64,000 bases of DNA from Salinispira sp. (GTDB lineage: Bacteria; Spirochaetota; Spirochaetia; DSM-27196; Salinispiraceae), in NCBI GenBank assembly GCA_965602015.1, contig OZ271918.1, forward strand, positions 608,001 to 672,000, in the 5' to 3' direction. The position numbers were made by a program, and so were the translations under genes. How positions within the stretch are numbered: position 1 is the stretch's first letter; every line of letters begins with the position of its first letter. A model generated the notes under the pieces. The model was not told the origin of the DNA, did not search any database, and saw nothing but the letters and a program-made list of their open reading frames with translations. This document shows positions 36,161-45,324 of this stretch, piece by piece.

Positions 36161-36188
36161 TTGCCATTTTGCCCTCATCGGTTACAAT
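36161..36188 (+). promoter_or_regulatory. Candidate sigma70 promoter of the methyltransferase-RiPP operon
   Basis: TTGCCA-16-TACAAT. Confidence 0.45.
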
Positions 36189-36239: not shown

Positions 36240-36905
36240 ATGTCCGATCAATCCGTTCTCAATGCAATAGATATTCGCTATAGCGACCTCGCTGAAGGGA
36301 GCTGCTGCCTTTCCTGCGGGGGAGCCATCGACAAATCCCAGCCAAAAGCCGGAGAGGTCTGCGTAGACCTGGGAAGCGGCCGGGGAACAGACCTCATACG
36401 TCTTGCCGAAGCGGTCGGTGAAACCGGCCATGTGCATGGGCTGGACATTAGTGACGGGATGCTTGCCAAGGCGTCCCGAACCGTGGAGAAGCTGGGGCTG
36501 TCCCGGCGGATCAGCCTTCATAAAAGTGATCTCCAAACCATACCCCTAAAATGCTCCAGCGTCGATTTGCTCATTTCGAACTGCACAATCAATCATGCTA
36601 AAAACAAAGCCCGGGTCTGGAAGGAGATCCATCGAGTTCTCAAAGACGGCGGGCGGTTTGTCGTCAGCGATATCTATTCGATCACCGAGGTTCCGGAACA
36701 ATACTCAAACGACCCCGCAGCCGTTGCCGAATGCTGGGCCGGTTCGGTTACCAGGGATAGTTATCTCCGCCAATTGTCGGACGCCGGTTTTGCTCAGATC
36801 GACATTGTTGAAAAGAGCGCGCCGTATGCCAAGGGGGAGATTGAAGTCTGTAGTTGGACGATCCGGGGTGTGAAGCGCGGCAGCGGCAGTTGCTGCTCGA
36901 AATAA
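36240..36905 (+). CDS. ArsM-like (arsenite S-adenosylmethionine methyltransferase family) methyltransferase
   Basis: CCLSCG, VDLGSGRGTD SAM motif, ISNCTIN, ECWAG, C-terminal CC: Cys pattern of ArsM/AS3MT. Confidence 0.8.
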   Translation: MSDQSVLNAIDIRYSDLAEGSCCLSCGGAIDKSQPKAGEVCVDLGSGRGTDLIRLAEAVGETGHVHGLDISDGMLAKASRTVEKLGLSRRISLHKSDLQTIPLKCSSVDLLISNCTINHAKNKARVWKEIHRVLKDGGRFVVSDIYSITEVPEQYSNDPAAVAECWAGSVTRDSYLRQLSDAGFAQIDIVEKSAPYAKGEIEVCSWTIRGVKRGSGSCCSK

Positions 36906-36911
36906 GGGTTT

Positions 36912-36930
36912 ATCAGCTGTTTTCGGGGCA
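36912..36930. repeat. Repeat-family end interrupted by the IS1111 insertion
   Basis: ATCAGCTGTTTTCGGGGCA; the usual continuation CT resumes at 38236 after the IS. Confidence 0.85.
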
Positions 36931-36954
36931 TATCTGAAAGCGGTGCCCCCCCGC

Positions 36955-37105
36955 AAGAGTTTTCATTGTTCTATTACAAAAATTCTGCAAATCGGTTTTG
37001 TCCGAGTCATATCTCCGCCATCCACGTGGCATGAAAATGTCCTTCCAGGGGTGTCGCAATCACTTTGCACAGCCTCGTATTCGCGCTGTAGCCCCAAAAA
37101 CGCGC
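36955..37105 (-). ncRNA. Predicted bridge/seek RNA of the IS1111 element
   Basis: Contains segments matching target (GUUUUUGGGGC, AAAGUG) and circle junction (UUUCAUGCCA, AGAUAUGA); ends approximate. Confidence 0.7.
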
Positions 37106-38158
37106 TTACCCCTGTCTGGACAAACCCGCTAATGCAGGATCTTTGTAATGCTGTTCTTTCTGCAATATCCAAAATATTGCTTCTGCTAAGTGCCGTGCCA
37201 CGGCGATTATTGCAACCTTATGATTACGTTTAGTACGAACTCTCTTGTAGAGTTTTACCGTATGTCGGTTCGCCCAATTTCTTTGATTAAGACAGGTTAC
37301 ATTAGCTGCTTCAGTAAGTGCCCACTTCAAGTATCGATTACATGCTTTCGATGTTCGACCATAATGAGTTTTACCTCCGCTCGAGTGAACGCGCGGCGTT
37401 GTACCACAGTATGATGCAAAATGTTCAGCGGTCTTAAAGCGATGTATGTCTCCAATTTCATGCACAATGACTGCGCTGAGAATAAATCCGATCCCGGGAA
37501 TGGATTTCACCAACTTCATTTCAGCATTTTCATCAAACGCTTCATGCATTCGTTGTTCGCAGTCGGTGATAGATTGCTTAATAAACGCGAGATTATCGAG
37601 CTTGAGTTTCATCATGGTGCGGGTATGCTCGGGGAGTTTTGGCATTACCTTCTTCATGGCTTCTGTACCTGCTTTTCCGAACAGATCGCTCACATCATTG
37701 AATCGAAACCCATATTTCTCGAACCCGGCATGAATTTGGTTCTTTTCACGTATCAACTCCTGAACGAACTGCATCCGGGTTCGATAGAGTTCTCGTTTAT
37801 CACGCAATTCTCCTGGTGGAATCCACACAGTAGGCAGTGTGCCTGCTTTTTGAAGTTTATTGAGACCTTCAGCATCGAGTTTGTCAGTTTTGTTAAACAT
37901 GGCCATCATCAATTTTGACTTACCGGCATGTACCAGCAAGGGGTTCATGCCGGCCTCCTCAATCTCATCCACAATCCAGTACCAACTTCCGATCGTTTCA
38001 AGTGCGACTTCCTGTCCCGGCTCAAATTGTTGGAGAAAATCACGAATACACCCGTGAGAATGTTCTATGCGCTGTGAGGATTTCCTTCCATTTTCGTCCT
38101 CAATTGCAGCCACGGTATACCGTTTATGGCTGTCGAGGGATATAATAGTATTACTCAT
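37106..38158 (-). CDS. IS110 family transposase/recombinase
   Basis: DEDD RuvC: SLDSHK, ALET, KTDKLDA; SIPGIG; HSSGG Tnp serine; RBS GGAGGAGG. Confidence 0.95.
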   Translation of the reverse strand: MSNTIISLDSHKRYTVAAIEDENGRKSSQRIEHSHGCIRDFLQQFEPGQEVALETIGSWYWIVDEIEEAGMNPLLVHAGKSKLMMAMFNKTDKLDAEGLNKLQKAGTLPTVWIPPGELRDKRELYRTRMQFVQELIREKNQIHAGFEKYGFRFNDVSDLFGKAGTEAMKKVMPKLPEHTRTMMKLKLDNLAFIKQSITDCEQRMHEAFDENAEMKLVKSIPGIGFILSAVIVHEIGDIHRFKTAEHFASYCGTTPRVHSSGGKTHYGRTSKACNRYLKWALTEAANVTCLNQRNWANRHTVKLYKRVRTKRNHKVAIIAVARHLAEAIFWILQKEQHYKDPALAGLSRQG

Positions 38159-38262
38159 TTGGTTGTCCTCCTCCGGTATTTAATATAGACCCTGACTGGC
38201 AGGATCTCGGGGGAGGCACCGCTTTCATACCATCACTCTAATAATGTACAAGGAGGGATTCT

Positions 38263-38370
38263 ATGAAAAAGAATCTGAAGTCTCTCATACGCAAAAAGCC
38301 TCAGGGCGACAAGAAGCAGGCTCAGTGCTGTGCCAAGGTTTCTCCCGTCGTTGCGGGCTGTCACGACTGA
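38263..38370 (+). CDS. Putative RiPP precursor peptide, 35 aa (MKKNLKSLIRKKPQGDKKQAQCCAKVSPVVAGCHD)
   Basis: Not in the ORF track; RBS AAGGAGG; Lys-rich leader and 3-Cys core; directly upstream of radical SAM/SPASM gene. Confidence 0.8.
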   Translation: MKKNLKSLIRKKPQGDKKQAQCCAKVSPVVAGCHD

Positions 38371-38457
38371 ACGCGGTTACCCGCGTGTGCCCCTCGGGGC
38401 CCGAAGGGCCGCTGAAACGGCGGTCCTCCGGTTTTTCTTTTCTGTAAGGATACTCCT

Positions 38458-39852
38458 ATGGCGGAAATTCTTTCGAAACACAACATTCTCACCCGGCTTC
38501 ATAACAAAGACGAATGGCTCCTGGTCAATCTTCTTCATCAGCAGGCGGACATTATTGAAGCTGATCTCGCAGATCAGATTCAAAATGGTGAAGTACTCAA
38601 CGCTGGTATCTCCGGCCCGGAGTACATCGAGTTAAAAGAGAAGGGGTATATAATTGATGATGCCCTCGAAGAGTCGAAATTCCGGCTTGCCTACGGAGAT
38701 TTTATACGCGCCAGGGACGAATCGGAAGTTCAGGTTTTCTACGTGCCTGGGTATTCCTGTAATTTTGCCTGCGGCTACTGCTATCAGGAAGGTTATGAGC
38801 ATGCCGCCCATCCGCAACAGGACGGAGTCATCGATGCCTTTTTTTCATATATCGATCGCAGCCTTGCAGGACGGTCCTGGTACCTGACGATTTTTGGCGG
38901 CGAACCTTTGCTGCCGGGGCCCAATCAGCGTCGAATTGTTGAAAAACTGATTAAAGGCTGTAACAGCAAGGGTGTATCCCTGGCTGTGGTGACCAACGGA
39001 TACTATTTAAAATCCTATATCGATCTGCTCTCTACCGCGGACATCAGAGAAATTCAGGTGACTCTTGATGGTGTGGGCGATGTGCATAACCGGCGCCGGC
39101 CGCTCAAAGCATCGGTCCACGGTGACCGTGATCCCTCGAGTTTCGAGGCGGTTGTGGCCGGTATTGATGCAGCCCTCGATGCGGGTTTTGTTGTAAATAT
39201 GCGCACGGTTCTGGACCGGGATAATCTTCCGGCTCTTCCCGATCTGGCAGATTTTGCTATCAGGAAGGGCTGGACGGGCAGGCGGAATTTCAAAACCCAG
39301 CTCGGACGGAATTACGAGCTTCATTCATGTCAGGCGAGTCAAAAACGCCTGTACAGTCGTCTCGAAATGTATTCCGACCTTTTCGATCTCATTTGTGAGC
39401 ATCCCCGGGTCCTGGAATTCCATGTTCCGGCGTACAGCATCTCTCGCTTCCTGTTTGAAAACGGCGAACTTCCCATGCCCCTGTTCGACAGTTGCCCAGG
39501 GACAAAAATCGAATGGGCCTTCGACTCAAGCGGGAAGGTGTATGCCTGCACCGCTACGGTGGGAAAGTCTGGGCAGGAACTGGGATCTTTTTATCCGCAA
39601 CAGAATCTGGACACCGATGCTGTGGAGCTGTGGGAGGATCGGGATGTCCTCTCCATAGATGAATGCCGCAGCTGTTCGCTCAACCTCGCCTGCGGGGGGG
39701 GGTGTGCGGCGATTGCCCTCAACCGCAACGGCGGGCTAAACACACCGGACTGCCGGCCGGTTGATGCCCTCATGTCCCTGGGGGTAAGCCTGTACGCCAG
39801 CCTGGACTTACCGACGAGGACTGAACTATCAGGAGGAAGTGATGGCGGGTAA
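38458..39852 (+). CDS. Radical SAM/SPASM peptide maturase with N-terminal RRE-like region
   Basis: CNFACGYC, FGGEPLL, TNGY, QVTLDG; SPASM Cys: CPG, YAC, CRSC, CGGGC, PDC. Confidence 0.9.
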   Translation: MAEILSKHNILTRLHNKDEWLLVNLLHQQADIIEADLADQIQNGEVLNAGISGPEYIELKEKGYIIDDALEESKFRLAYGDFIRARDESEVQVFYVPGYSCNFACGYCYQEGYEHAAHPQQDGVIDAFFSYIDRSLAGRSWYLTIFGGEPLLPGPNQRRIVEKLIKGCNSKGVSLAVVTNGYYLKSYIDLLSTADIREIQVTLDGVGDVHNRRRPLKASVHGDRDPSSFEAVVAGIDAALDAGFVVNMRTVLDRDNLPALPDLADFAIRKGWTGRRNFKTQLGRNYELHSCQASQKRLYSRLEMYSDLFDLICEHPRVLEFHVPAYSISRFLFENGELPMPLFDSCPGTKIEWAFDSSGKVYACTATVGKSGQELGSFYPQQNLDTDAVELWEDRDVLSIDECRSCSLNLACGGGCAAIALNRNGGLNTPDCRPVDALMSLGVSLYASLDLPTRTELSGGSDGG

Positions 39853-41125
39853 AATACATGAAATCGATTCGGAGGAATACCAGGAGGCGGTCCTCAATCA
39901 GAACCTTGCCGTTTTGGATTTCTACTCAACCGAATGCCCTCCCTGCGAAGCTCTGGCAGCAAAATTCGAGGCTCTTAGTGAGATCTATGGCGACCACATT
40001 AGATTCGTCAAAATTTTCCGTCAGGGAAATCGGGATCTTGCCCTCAAACTCGGGGTTACGGGTAGCCCGACCCTTTTATTCTACCGGGCCGGCGAGATGG
40101 TCGGCGACAAACTCACTGGTGGCATAAGACGATCGGCAATTATGAAAAACCTCGATAGTTTACTAGGCGAAAGCCGGGCAGCGGAACTAAAAACCCGGAT
40201 TAAGGCTGTTGAGACGACGGCCGATGCGGTAATTCTCGGCGGGGGACCTGCAGGACTGACCGCCGGTATATACCTAGCACAGGCTCGCCTAAAAACCATC
40301 CTTGTGGACACCGCCCTTCCGGGAGGCTATGTAGCGACGACGCACCAGGTATCAAATTACCCAGGCTTCGTTGAGCCTCAAACCGGCATGATGCTCAGCC
40401 ATTACATTAGTGAGCAGGCCAAAAAAAACGGTGTCGATTTCCGGGCTGCTGTTGAAGTAAATGAGGTCAACCTAAAGGAGCGAACCGTCCGGATTGACGG
40501 ATTTGAGACGATCAGGGGAAAAAAGCTGCTCATCGCCACCGGATCGAGCCCACGGCCCCTGGGAATCCCCGGGGAACTCGAGTTCCGGGGAGACGGAATT
40601 TCGTACTGCGCCACCTGCGACGCAAAGTACTTCGACGGCAAGGACGTGATTGTTGTGGGCGGGGGAAACTCTGCCATTGAAGAGGCTCTTTTTATCAGCA
40701 AGTTTGCTAAATCAATAACCATCGTTCATCAATTCGATGATCTTCAGGCTAACAAATTAGCCCAGGAGAAAATCTACGCAAATCCCAAGGTTGAATTCCT
40801 GCTCAGTCATGAACCAAGGGAGTTCAAGCGCTACGGCACCATGGACATGGGGGTGGTAATCGAAAACCTCAAGACGAAGTCGAGAAGGGAAATCCGAGCA
40901 CACGGGATTTTTGCTTTCATCGGATTTATGGCAAATCTCGATGGTCTCCAGGGATTAGAGCAGGACCAGTGGGGTTACATTAAAACTGACGGAGAAATGC
41001 GCACCAATATCGACGGAGTGTATGCCGCAGGTGATATTACATCCAAGATGTATCGGCAGATTACCACAGCGGTGAGCGATGGTACCATCGCTGGAATAAG
41101 CATGAGCAAGGAAATATCAGGATAG
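39842..41125 (+). CDS. Thioredoxin-thioredoxin reductase fusion
   Basis: N-terminal DFYSTECPPC Trx domain; GGGPAG, SYCATCD, GGGNSA, AAGD; overlaps the rSAM stop. Confidence 0.88.
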   Translation: MAGKIHEIDSEEYQEAVLNQNLAVLDFYSTECPPCEALAAKFEALSEIYGDHIRFVKIFRQGNRDLALKLGVTGSPTLLFYRAGEMVGDKLTGGIRRSAIMKNLDSLLGESRAAELKTRIKAVETTADAVILGGGPAGLTAGIYLAQARLKTILVDTALPGGYVATTHQVSNYPGFVEPQTGMMLSHYISEQAKKNGVDFRAAVEVNEVNLKERTVRIDGFETIRGKKLLIATGSSPRPLGIPGELEFRGDGISYCATCDAKYFDGKDVIVVGGGNSAIEEALFISKFAKSITIVHQFDDLQANKLAQEKIYANPKVEFLLSHEPREFKRYGTMDMGVVIENLKTKSRREIRAHGIFAFIGFMANLDGLQGLEQDQWGYIKTDGEMRTNIDGVYAAGDITSKMYRQITTAVSDGTIAGISMSKEISG

Positions 41126-43357: not shown

Positions 43358-43436
43358 GACCAGCCAAGACGAAAAATCCTCGCGGTTCAGCGTAGATGGA
43401 TTTATACTGGAATCATTGAGTGATGCAGGAGGAACG

Positions 43437-43601
43437 ATGTCCAGGAAAACCATTACCGTGAAAGAATTTGCGGTGGAGTTGGCCGAAAGACTCAACGCAG
43501 GAAAAGATGTAAATTGCTGCAAGCAGGAGATTCTTAACCTGGTGAACATAGTTGTGAAGCGTATTCCCGCTGAGCCCATCGAAGTGGAGTGGAAGGATTG
43601 A
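43437..43601 (+). CDS. Small hypothetical protein (54 aa, CC motif)
   Basis: RBS AGGAGG; MSRKTITVKEFAVELAERLNAGKDVNCCKQEIL... Confidence 0.7.
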   Translation: MSRKTITVKEFAVELAERLNAGKDVNCCKQEILNLVNIVVKRIPAEPIEVEWKD

Positions 43602-44071
43602 AAGTGGGTGAAGGGGATAAACGCGGACTGCTTACAGAAATTGAGGCTTTGGAAAAAAAAGCACCGGGCCTTGATGACCTGCATCACGCTTTCGGCGGGG
43701 TGTTTGCGGATTATTTATCTGAGGCGTTGAAGAATCTGCGAATCCGGGAAGTGTTTCATCCTATTCTGCTCGACCCCTGGAATATTGGTGACCCGAAATC
43801 CTTCGTCGTCTCGAACAACATTTCGTTCCATCAGCTTTTCGAACTGCAGCAGGACATGCGGGCATTTATGTGCGAGCTGCGCAGGCGTTATATGTGCGAT
43901 ATTGATGAAATTATCGATTACGCCGGGCCCCACCTTCCATCGAGTTTGAGCTATAGCGAGAAGAGTCTGGTACTGTTATACATCCTCAACCGGATGTGCG
44001 AGGCCCAGAATGATCTGCTTGAGAAGTTGGTTTCTTCATCTGATATCAGCCGCGATGTGTATGACCATTAG
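43598..44071 (+). CDS. Hypothetical protein
   Basis: TTG start overlapping the upstream stop (TTGA); 157 aa open frame. Confidence 0.6.
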   Translation: MKVGEGDKRGLLTEIEALEKKAPGLDDLHHAFGGVFADYLSEALKNLRIREVFHPILLDPWNIGDPKSFVVSNNISFHQLFELQQDMRAFMCELRRRYMCDIDEIIDYAGPHLPSSLSYSEKSLVLLYILNRMCEAQNDLLEKLVSSSDISRDVYDH

Positions 44072-44073
44072 TA

Positions 44074-45324
44074 AGTGCCCCAAAACAGCTGATCGAATCA
44101 ACATAACTCTTTTGCCAGTAGTCTTCTATGACACGATTACCGCTCATAGGAGATTACCATGGCATTTTACCCCCGATTCTGTCCGTACTCGGACTGCTCT
44201 CAGCATCATCGCGACAGAGAATCAAGCCGATGCTGGTTTGTCCGAAACGGCCACTATCACTGTCGCCGCCTCGGTTCTTCACAGCGCTATCGCTGTAAGC
44301 ATTGCCGTCGATACTTCTGCGAAAGCGCGTTTCACCTCGATTATCGCGCACATCATCGCCTCGATTACCGGCGCATCTTCTCTTCGATCAACTCGGCTTC
44401 CGGCATCCGCGACATTGCCCGGGAGTTTTATGTCACCGACAAGGTCATTCTCAATCGGCTGAGCCGATTGTCCCGTCAGGCAATCGCTGCCATGGCCCAG
44501 TTATTGAGCGATCATACAATCGATGAGGATATTGCCGTTGATGGGTTTGAAAGCTTTGTATATAGCCAATACTGGCCGAACAACTTCACCCTCGCGGTAG
44601 GTTCCGACAGCCAGGTTGTCTATGCGTGCGACTATGCGCAGATGCGGCGCAAAGGGCGGATGACCCCCGCACAAAAGCGCCGGCGCGATGAGCTCAATCG
44701 CCGGTATCCTATTGCAGGGGGACAAATTGCGCGATCTTTCCGTGATGTGATAAACACCATTCTTCCCAGGTGGAGGGCTTATTCATCGAAGAAGCCATGC
44801 TATCTCTTGAGCGATGAAAAACTCGAATACCGCCGTGAGCTGTTCGCTCACCGGGACTGGGCGGCGTTGGAAAATGCAGGGAAGGTACTCCATCACCGAA
44901 CCTCATCGAGGGTGGTCAGGACCACTGAGAACCCCCTGTTTCCGGTGAATTACCTGGATCGGGAGATACGAAAGGATCAATCCTGTCATGTCCGCCAGAG
45001 TGTGCAGTGGTCAAAATCGGTGAACAACAGCATGGAGCGGATGATGATTTACATCGCCTATCATAACCTGCTCAAGCCGTATCGGATAAACGGACGAAAC
45101 GATATCAGCCATGGTGAGGTTGCGGGGTTTGACCGAAAGCGGGTACTCACGTTGGCAAAAAGGATGTTTACACAGCGGGCCTTCGTTCATCATCTGGTGC
45201 TGGACATCAGCCAATGGAAGACCTGGCACCGGATCTGGAAGACACCGGTGAGTGCGCTAAAGATCGACCTACCCGATTATGCGGTGGCCTGAGGAGCGGG
45301 AAATCAGCTGTTTTGGGGGCACTT
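44074..45324 (+). mobile_element. IS1/IS1595-like insertion element with ~20-bp terminal inverted repeats
   Basis: Left AGTGCCCCAAAACAGCTGAT (44074-44093), right ATCAGCTGTTTTGGGGGCACTT (45303-45324), enclosing a single transposase-like ORF. Confidence 0.8.
44159..45292 (+). CDS. Putative DDE transposase (InsA-like zinc ribbon + HTH + RNase H-like domain)
   Basis: CP..DC...RNG.....QRYRCKHCRRYF; GIRDIARE HTH; VDGFE, LSDEK; YHNLLKPYR...SHGEVAG tail. Confidence 0.75.
   Translation: MAFYPRFCPYSDCSQHHRDRESSRCWFVRNGHYHCRRLGSSQRYRCKHCRRYFCESAFHLDYRAHHRLDYRRIFSSINSASGIRDIAREFYVTDKVILNRLSRLSRQAIAAMAQLLSDHTIDEDIAVDGFESFVYSQYWPNNFTLAVGSDSQVVYACDYAQMRRKGRMTPAQKRRRDELNRRYPIAGGQIARSFRDVINTILPRWRAYSSKKPCYLLSDEKLEYRRELFAHRDWAALENAGKVLHHRTSSRVVRTTENPLFPVNYLDREIRKDQSCHVRQSVQWSKSVNNSMERMMIYIAYHNLLKPYRINGRNDISHGEVAGFDRKRVLTLAKRMFTQRAFVHHLVLDISQWKTWHRIWKTPVSALKIDLPDYAVA

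Follow-up and report, generated by a model that had tools for sequence, protein, structure and literature searches.

The window analysed in this work, a stretch of 64,000 nucleotides (nt) from Salinispira sp. (contig OZ271918.1, here C1, positions 608001-672000 of a complete 3.87-Mb genome), harbours a cassette of four genes encoding a compact S-adenosylmethionine (SAM) methyltransferase that resembles the arsenic methyltransferase ArsM, a short cysteine peptide, a radical SAM protein with a SPASM domain (rSAM), whose closest named relatives belong to the Spirochaetota, and a fusion of thioredoxin to thioredoxin reductase (Trx-TrxR) (Table 1). An earlier reading of this DNA (the initial annotation) had described a hidden 35-residue open reading frame (ORF) with a strong ribosome-binding site, a basic leader and a CC-x9-C core, followed by the rSAM gene and an overlapping Trx-TrxR gene, and all of these are indeed present. 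The four reading frames are intact in this genome, and an insertion sequence (IS) of the IS110 family separates the methyltransferase gene from the other three. In both same-genus genomes the operon is uninterrupted, with a spacer between methyltransferase and peptide genes of 51 nt (G001, L156) or 59 nt (G002, L155), which agrees with the proposal that the four genes formerly made up one operon; the IS-free spacer of the window, first put at 52 nt, becomes 31 nt (6+25) with the IS bounds given here. The promoter candidate upstream of the methyltransferase gene stems from a search by consensus only, which returned 8 sites in the region against 3.1 expected.

Table 1. Features of the cassette and its insertion sequence (window positions, except for the last row, which gives positions on C1; aa, amino acids).
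Feature	Position	Strand	Remarks
Sigma-70-like promoter candidate	36161..36188	+	Upstream of methyltransferase; 10/12 consensus matches
Compact ArsM-like SAM methyltransferase, 221 aa	36240..36905	+	NF008823, 165.4 bits; cut-off 263
IS110-family element, 1326 bp	36912..38237	-	Bounds from genome copies and loose contig ends
IS110 transposase, 350 aa	37106..38158	-	NF033542, 227 bits; cut-off 140
Ribosome-binding site AAGGAGG	38250..38256	+	6 nt ahead of peptide ATG
Cysteine peptide, 35 aa, C22-C23-x9-C33	38263..38370	+	Core ends at stop
Stable hairpins, including terminator-like stem 38405-38427 and T run	38371..38437	+	Gap between peptide and rSAM genes; z -3.5
Radical SAM/SPASM protein, 464 aa	38458..39852	+	PF04055; TIGR04085, 41.3 bits; cut-off 27
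Trx (CPPC)-TrxR (CATC) fusion, 428 aa	39839..41125	+	Start overlaps rSAM end
Other IS copies on C1	1234146, 278032, 1214807, 238293, 360768, 3402551, 331361, 3400974		

A main result of the comparative analysis is that these four genes form a real gene set that travels together and is carried by many anaerobic bacteria. In 30 loci retrieved by radical SAM similarity, the peptide and methyltransferase genes each accompany the rSAM gene in 29 and Trx-TrxR does so in 26, bearing out the conservation of the peptide and of the ArsM-like gene beside rSAM homologs on which the initial annotation depended. The one locus that lacks the upstream genes comprises just 258 nt of upstream sequence; of the four without Trx-TrxR, two end at a contig edge and two extend over 5 kb in which the gene is absent. 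Metagenomes were also scanned for the peptide core, with a pattern that ended at the last Asp and demanded no stop codon, and yielded at least 120 loci. In the peptide-anchored set (80 loci with flanks), a same-strand methyltransferase gene is found in 50 of the 52 loci with 1.5 kb upstream, the rSAM gene in 50 of the 52 with 1.5 kb downstream and Trx-TrxR in 30 of the 35 with 3.5 kb downstream. Within a phylum sample of 301 genomes the rSAM is present in 36, and the cassette occurs also in Bacteroidota and in metagenomes; its cultured carriers include a Pleomorphochaeta isolate (L011). Wide loci (n=32, from 31 rSAM-bearing sample genomes and G002) all contain the methyltransferase, peptide and rSAM genes, and 31 of them Trx-TrxR; they include a divergent subgroup (rSAM identity 34-36%) whose peptide also ends in GCHD. 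At close range the distribution is patchy, since 38 of 40 searched relatives of the window genome have no close match to the cassette. A plasmid collection held distant rSAMs only, the ten listed being 23-31% identical.

Co-conservation bears directly on the possibility that an ordinary resistance arsM and a thioredoxin system adjoin an unrelated peptide/rSAM pair by chance. Some homologs are labelled 'arsenite methyltransferase' in databases, as such an explanation would have it, but in Spirochaetota and Bacteroidota alike the four genes keep each other's company even where their order is rearranged, orphan short methyltransferases look decayed, and 9 of the 36 cassette genomes carry a separate canonical ArsM. 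Accidental adjacency is hence highly improbable and, largely through co-conservation, nearly excluded. The genome-level association between cassette and canonical ArsM (9/36 versus 13/265, Fisher p 3e-4) was not used, because seven of the nine genomes belong to one genus. Short methyltransferases without peptide or rSAM were seen at two loci, L281 (G079:C132) and L283 (G146:C16); one cassette-free gene lies beside a C-terminal TrxR fragment and the other has an altered cysteine motif, and both are probably decayed cassettes.

The peptide is the most uniform element of the set. Its core, AQCCAKxSxxxAGCHD, is found in all 29 peptide-bearing rSAM loci with 12 of 16 positions invariant, and at these positions 28 distinct DNA sequences vary only synonymously; invariance of the core and synonymous-only codon changes together show that the peptide is not a chance reading frame but a real gene. 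The stop codon directly follows the last Asp in all 120 metagenome matches listed (TAA 68, TGA 39, TAG 13). Selenocysteine read-through of the peptide TGA was considered and rejected, the stop being TAA or TAG in 81 of these 120 homologs and SelA not being found in the genome; since the stop codon is interchangeable among homologs, the TGA of the window peptide is a plain stop. A conserved N-terminal basic motif (family consensus MKSLIKKK), a linker variable in sequence and length, an invariant C-terminal core and a hairpin after the stop, strong in 25 of 29 relatives, give the peptide the anatomy of a precursor of peptides made on the ribosome and modified after translation (RiPPs). In the divergent subgroup (L199-L204) the linker contains a second CC. 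The peptide matches no NCBIfam or Pfam family, and its database copies are annotated as 'hypothetical protein' only. The cassette is common and the peptide nearly invariant, which speaks for a conserved role in the cell and against a diversifying antibiotic. No protease or exporter is conserved among the cassette neighbours (first 110 loci; 125 neighbour representatives), and this suggests that the product is intracellular.

The rSAM enzyme exceeds a family cut-off for its SPASM domain only. It combines a CxxxCxxC motif (C101/105/108) with SPASM cysteines at C346, 364, 403, 406, 412, 416 and 432; among 120 homologs 10 of 11 cysteines are invariant and C432 is retained in at least 90%, and an additional H289-x-C291 motif is likewise invariant. 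Its closest solved relative is CteB (PDB 5wgg, E 1.7e-19), in which the reported auxiliary-cluster cysteines match C346/364/416 and C403/406/412/432 (PMC10177961). Like SCIFF/CteB and PapB (TIGR03974, NF047865), the cassette places a short cysteine-rich peptide beside a SPASM enzyme with seven CteB-type cysteines. It differs from these systems in that the rSAM falls far below their cut-offs (58 versus 425 and 83 versus 340 bits), that the peptide has three core cysteines and an invariant GCHD end and lacks CX3D, and that an H-x-C motif and obligate ArsM-like and Trx-TrxR partners are added. CefB (NF038107) and the TIGR04463 maturases of cysteine-rich peptides are the top NCBIfam models and align over nearly the full length, N-terminus included, but here also the scores are low (132 versus 600 and 124 versus 525 bits). 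The initial annotation had called this protein an RRE-like radical SAM/SPASM enzyme. Its radical SAM/SPASM assignment stands, and the N-terminal extension may be a RiPP recognition element (RRE), as weakly suggested by an atlas comparison that led (0.91) to a cluster of which 11% of the members carry PqqD; no Pfam PqqD match was obtained.

Arsenic methyltransferases are the best solved relatives of the compact methyltransferase (E 2.6e-23), and ArsM/AS3MT (NF008823; PDB 4kw7, 4fr0) provides its best family and structure match. Residues C26, C115 and C165 align with C72, C174 and C224 of the solved algal ArsM, and C22/C23 correspond by position to the N-terminal pair aligned to the canonical ArsM CC (the L199 row, out of frame, was not used in this alignment). 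Retention among 92 homologs is high (C115 and C165, 92 each; C26, 90; C22 and C23, 84 each), so that the enzyme appears by alignment to possess the four conserved catalytic cysteines that most ArsMs are reported to require (PMC8552651). In contrast with ArsM/AS3MT, whose family model spans 272 aa, the cassette enzyme is shorter, forms a separate branch and occurs almost exclusively in the cassette. Where ArsM-like matches include an in-frame TGA (L255 and L258, together with L254, L256 and L257; G081, G055, G120, G237, G103), the codon may encode selenocysteine in an ArsM or mark the end of a frame.

The Trx-TrxR fusion supplies a second TrxR beside the housekeeping one. In 52 of its 58 homologs an HQF replaces the HRR-type NADPH motif, which is VRR in the housekeeping copy; the window protein likewise has HQF at this place and scores below the TIGR01292 cut-off (300.5 versus 343.45 bits). 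This substitution implies that the electron donor of the cassette TrxR may not be NADPH. HQF-like motifs are linked to ferredoxin-dependent reductases.

Taken together, these components lead us to propose, tentatively and with a probability a little short of even, that the cassette encodes an organo-arsenic pathway that is built on a peptide and operates inside the cell. The peptide would be produced in excess, as the hairpin after its stop suggests, and the rSAM would bind its basic N-terminal motif through an N-terminal domain. Its three invariant cysteines would bind trivalent arsenic, to which the compact ArsM-like enzyme, through its ArsM-type cysteines, would transfer the methyl group of SAM. 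The rSAM/SPASM enzyme would remove a hydrogen atom from one of the invariant residues of the core (S27, A31/G32, H34 or D35) and then either link carbon to the bound arsenic (C-As) or form a C-S thioether by which the binding site is fixed, while the dedicated Trx-TrxR would keep the thiols of peptide and methyltransferase reduced. The most specific form of this scheme, in which the rSAM builds a C-As bond from Cys-bound As(III) to a side chain or the backbone of the peptide and the compact ArsM then acts as the methylase of this arsenic, strikes us as doubtful.

Precedent for such chemistry comes from arsinothricin (ArsL and ArsM) and arsenosugar (ArsS and ArsM), with which the cassette shares the presence of a radical SAM enzyme and an ArsM in one cluster. 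ArsL/ArsM and ArsS/ArsM, the two characterised bacterial pairs, are each reported to make an organoarsenical (bioRxiv 10.1101/2024.02.01.577332; PMC8552651), and both form C-As bonds. ArsL is described as binding arsenite through an RCCLKC tail (bioRxiv 10.1101/2024.02.01.577332); the CCLSC start of the cassette methyltransferase, in which C22/C23 are joined to C26 because about 30 residues of canonical ArsM have been lost, resembles this tail, a likeness for which no homology is claimed. The systems also differ. ArsL is presented as a single-cluster enzyme acting on free arsenite (PMC8552651), whereas the cassette enzyme is a SPASM-type maturase that would act on a peptide, and the cassette has no conserved exporter of the ArsQ type.

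A second line of evidence is provided by protein fusions. A search of 1.84 billion representatives, with follow-up, recovered eight proteins of about 790 aa (P0304, P0424-P0430; one labelled Acidobacteria) in which a related rSAM/SPASM is fused to an ArsM domain. The four rSAM halves compared are 30-32% identical to the window enzyme, and all eight proteins carry the CC, GCG and SNC cysteine motifs. The ArsM domain of P0304 scores 222 bits against NF008823 and 220 against the arsinothricin ArsM model, both below cut-off. In the methyltransferase tree (a quick tree with long outgroup branches and an unsure root, its mis-cut P0445 row disregarded), seven fused domains group with canonical ArsMs with a support of 95, and in a midpoint-rooted FastTree of 96 rows the fused rSAM halves and the cassette enzymes fall within a 98-supported group of 50 rows, the fusions as a near-sister clade. 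With canonical fused domains on near-sister rSAM halves, this rSAM lineage has ArsM-like partners of two different kinds. The fusions constitute a candidate organoarsenical pathway in their own right. P0445, an apparent methyltransferase-rSAM fusion, was rejected as a probable read-through from a frame error, its linker reading as the other frame of the peptide.

A third element is the cassette of G095 (L226, C75:1-17000), which abuts an ars island composed of arsR, an ArsP-type permease, DGC, a CcdA-like gene, arsR, a canonical ArsM, Acr3 and ArsC. The cassette is rearranged there: one strand carries the methyltransferase and rSAM genes together with a truncated Trx-TrxR, the other the peptide and a full Trx-TrxR. 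Since a canonical ArsM accompanies the short one in this genome, the case suggests that the two do different jobs.

Several observations weigh against an arsenic product. The methyltransferase falls below the NF008823 cut-off (Table 1) and has lost the N-terminal segment of canonical ArsM mentioned above, and the short enzymes branch outside the group of canonical and fused ArsMs (support 95, in the same quick, uncertainly rooted tree). In its SPASM cysteines the rSAM follows CteB, an enzyme that makes thioethers, and such a reaction would use up cysteines that are required for arsenic. A profile comparison of the rSAM N-terminus with ScfB-like N-termini did not rise above shuffles, and the fused clade is just a near-sister of the cassette rSAMs. 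Genes for ars transport or reduction occur in 3 of 142 loci (Acr3-type 2, ArsC 1, ArsP-type 2; 1.22 Mb, some near-duplicates), and the theme of the neighbourhood is thiol and persulfide metabolism, with thioredoxins (25), rhodaneses (18), DUF1847 (15), DUF6132 (15), MarR (11) and DUF302 (10) recurring beside the cassette across the first 110 loci. The arsenic-bearing peptide of the initial annotation thus draws indirect support from the ArsM cysteines, the near-sister fusions, the single ars-island cassette and the rSAM-ArsM precedent, and is weakened by the branching, the cut-off and the thiol/persulfide neighbours.

We consider an arsenic-free alternative possible if somewhat unlikely. Here the rSAM would make a CteB-like thioether from Cys to carbon, placed for instance inside the C-x3-S motif or close to the C-terminal G-C-H-D, the ArsM-fold enzyme would methylate a peptide thiol, persulfide or sulfide, and the product would act as an intracellular thiol cofactor or carrier in sulfide and persulfide handling. 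CteB, which has an open site on its auxiliary cluster 1, as closest structure and the shared seven-cysteine pattern are in line with this, as are neighbours such as rhodaneses, CoA-disulfide reductase/rhodanese, SQR-like, DsrE and YedE proteins and BigR-like regulators, and the lack of a conserved protease or exporter. Yet such chemistry leaves unexplained both the conservation of the arsenic-binding cysteines of ArsM and the association of a near-sister rSAM clade with the ArsM lineage and of one cassette with an ars island; moreover, the invariant H289-x-C291 lies outside the CteB pattern and may occupy the site that is open in CteB.

Gene neighbourhood cannot decide the arsenic question in this phylum. 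In the window the operon contains no arsR, acr3, arsC or arsP and, as the initial annotation had noted, no ars resistance, protease or exporter gene adjoins it; a separate acr3-arsC pair lies about 207 kb away. But among canonical arsM genes above cut-off in the 301 genomes, only one of 22 has acr3, arsC or arsP within 1.5 kb, and that one is the L226 island; in 20 wider loci none does, and two of these genes lie behind a MarR-like gene. Hence, with canonical arsM also mostly devoid of ars neighbours, their absence from the cassette is not evidence against arsenic. Besides L226, G137 has ArsR and an ArsP-type permease 3' of TrxR.

Another soft metal or metalloid (antimony, selenium, tellurium, bismuth or mercury) might instead be bound to the peptide, methylated or trapped, a possibility that we judge improbable. 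It is encouraged by partners of the cassette such as DUF5714/MbdU-like proteins, C_GCAxxG_C_C proteins, a member of the YedE selenium-transporter family and SaoE/ArsP-type permeases. A DUF5714/MbdU-like gene lies directly upstream of the methyltransferase gene in four divergent loci (L199, L200, L202, L203), and in P0279 and P0285 the rSAM itself is joined to DUF5714 as one protein; this fifth partner is in keeping with soft-metal handling. Fusions of MbdU and ArsM are reported among selenoproteins, many new families of which are tied to Hg/As resistance (PMC13188914), and this too favours another element. However, the 125 neighbour representatives include no recurrent gene of the mer, ter or antimony-specific kind, and the sole complete resistance island seen is of the arsenic type. 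The Tso/SAO selenoprotein systems were also considered and set aside, as no family match was found and the accessible text of the bioRxiv paper on SAO mentions neither ArsM, SPASM nor RiPPs.

Regulation of the cassette may be approached through a MarR-family protein with two conserved cysteines, one near each end, that accounts for the 11 MarR neighbours above; MarR-like genes occur in 15 of the 32 wide loci (examples, L001:3731-4138 and L050:1546-1971), and the ligand of this regulator would reveal the signal of the pathway. Of 110 loci, 22 of the Bacteroidota type (among them L014:3388-3816 and L078:4983-5411) conserve, upstream of the cassette and in divergent orientation, a gene for a 142-aa protein whose only domain is the IS1595 zinc ribbon; it resembles a domesticated regulator more than a transposase.

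The insertion that splits the operon in the window is recent, and the IS110-family element is active. Its bounds were set by eight other near-full genome copies and by loose ends of public contigs at 36912 and 38237/38238; with the window copy, nine near-identical full copies (98.7-99.9%) reside in the genome, the other eight on C1 (Table 1). Subterminal inverted repeats at 36936-36947 and 38215-38226 give the element a layout that we take to be of the IS1111 type. No empty-site joint was found in four runs of one sample, contigs being unable to demonstrate its absence. Lying between the promoter candidate and the last three genes, the IS may silence or detach those genes in the window strain. 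One IS110 copy directly follows the stop of an apparent copy of the IS1-like ORF at window positions 44159-45292. Elsewhere in the window, two ORFs of 61 and 160 aa that follow the Tex gene (43416-44071) have no Pfam or NCBIfam match, and the 61-aa ORF contains a CC pair.

No description of the cassette was found in the full-text literature, with theses, abstracts, most subscription journals and the supplements of rSAM RiPP genome-mining studies outside this coverage. Student or conference abstracts on 'AsRiPP' are said to have presented a cluster of arsM, a SPASM gene and a precursor, supposedly from Roseimarinus sediminis (Bacteroidota), and, if so, would have put forward the same idea for a gene set of similar composition, so that the proposal may already have been made; the literature covered here did not contain them. 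Neither the rSAM nor the methyltransferase is described at cut-off by an NCBIfam or Pfam family, and the peptide by none at all.

Our analysis thus establishes the cassette as a real, widespread and uncharacterised radical SAM peptide system that stands a fair chance of carrying out new chemistry on arsenic, and its four small genes make it directly testable. If arsenic is not its target, it still constitutes an uncharacterised class of radical SAM peptides with an unusual methyltransferase. If arsenic is the target, it would define a new class of organoarsenicals and a new enzyme reaction, and some of the short 'arsM' annotations in anaerobes would serve peptide chemistry and not simple arsenite methylation. 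Should a C-As bond indeed be formed on the peptide, the cassette would represent a third biological route to such bonds and the first to operate on a peptide, spread through anaerobic bacteria of sediments and reactors.

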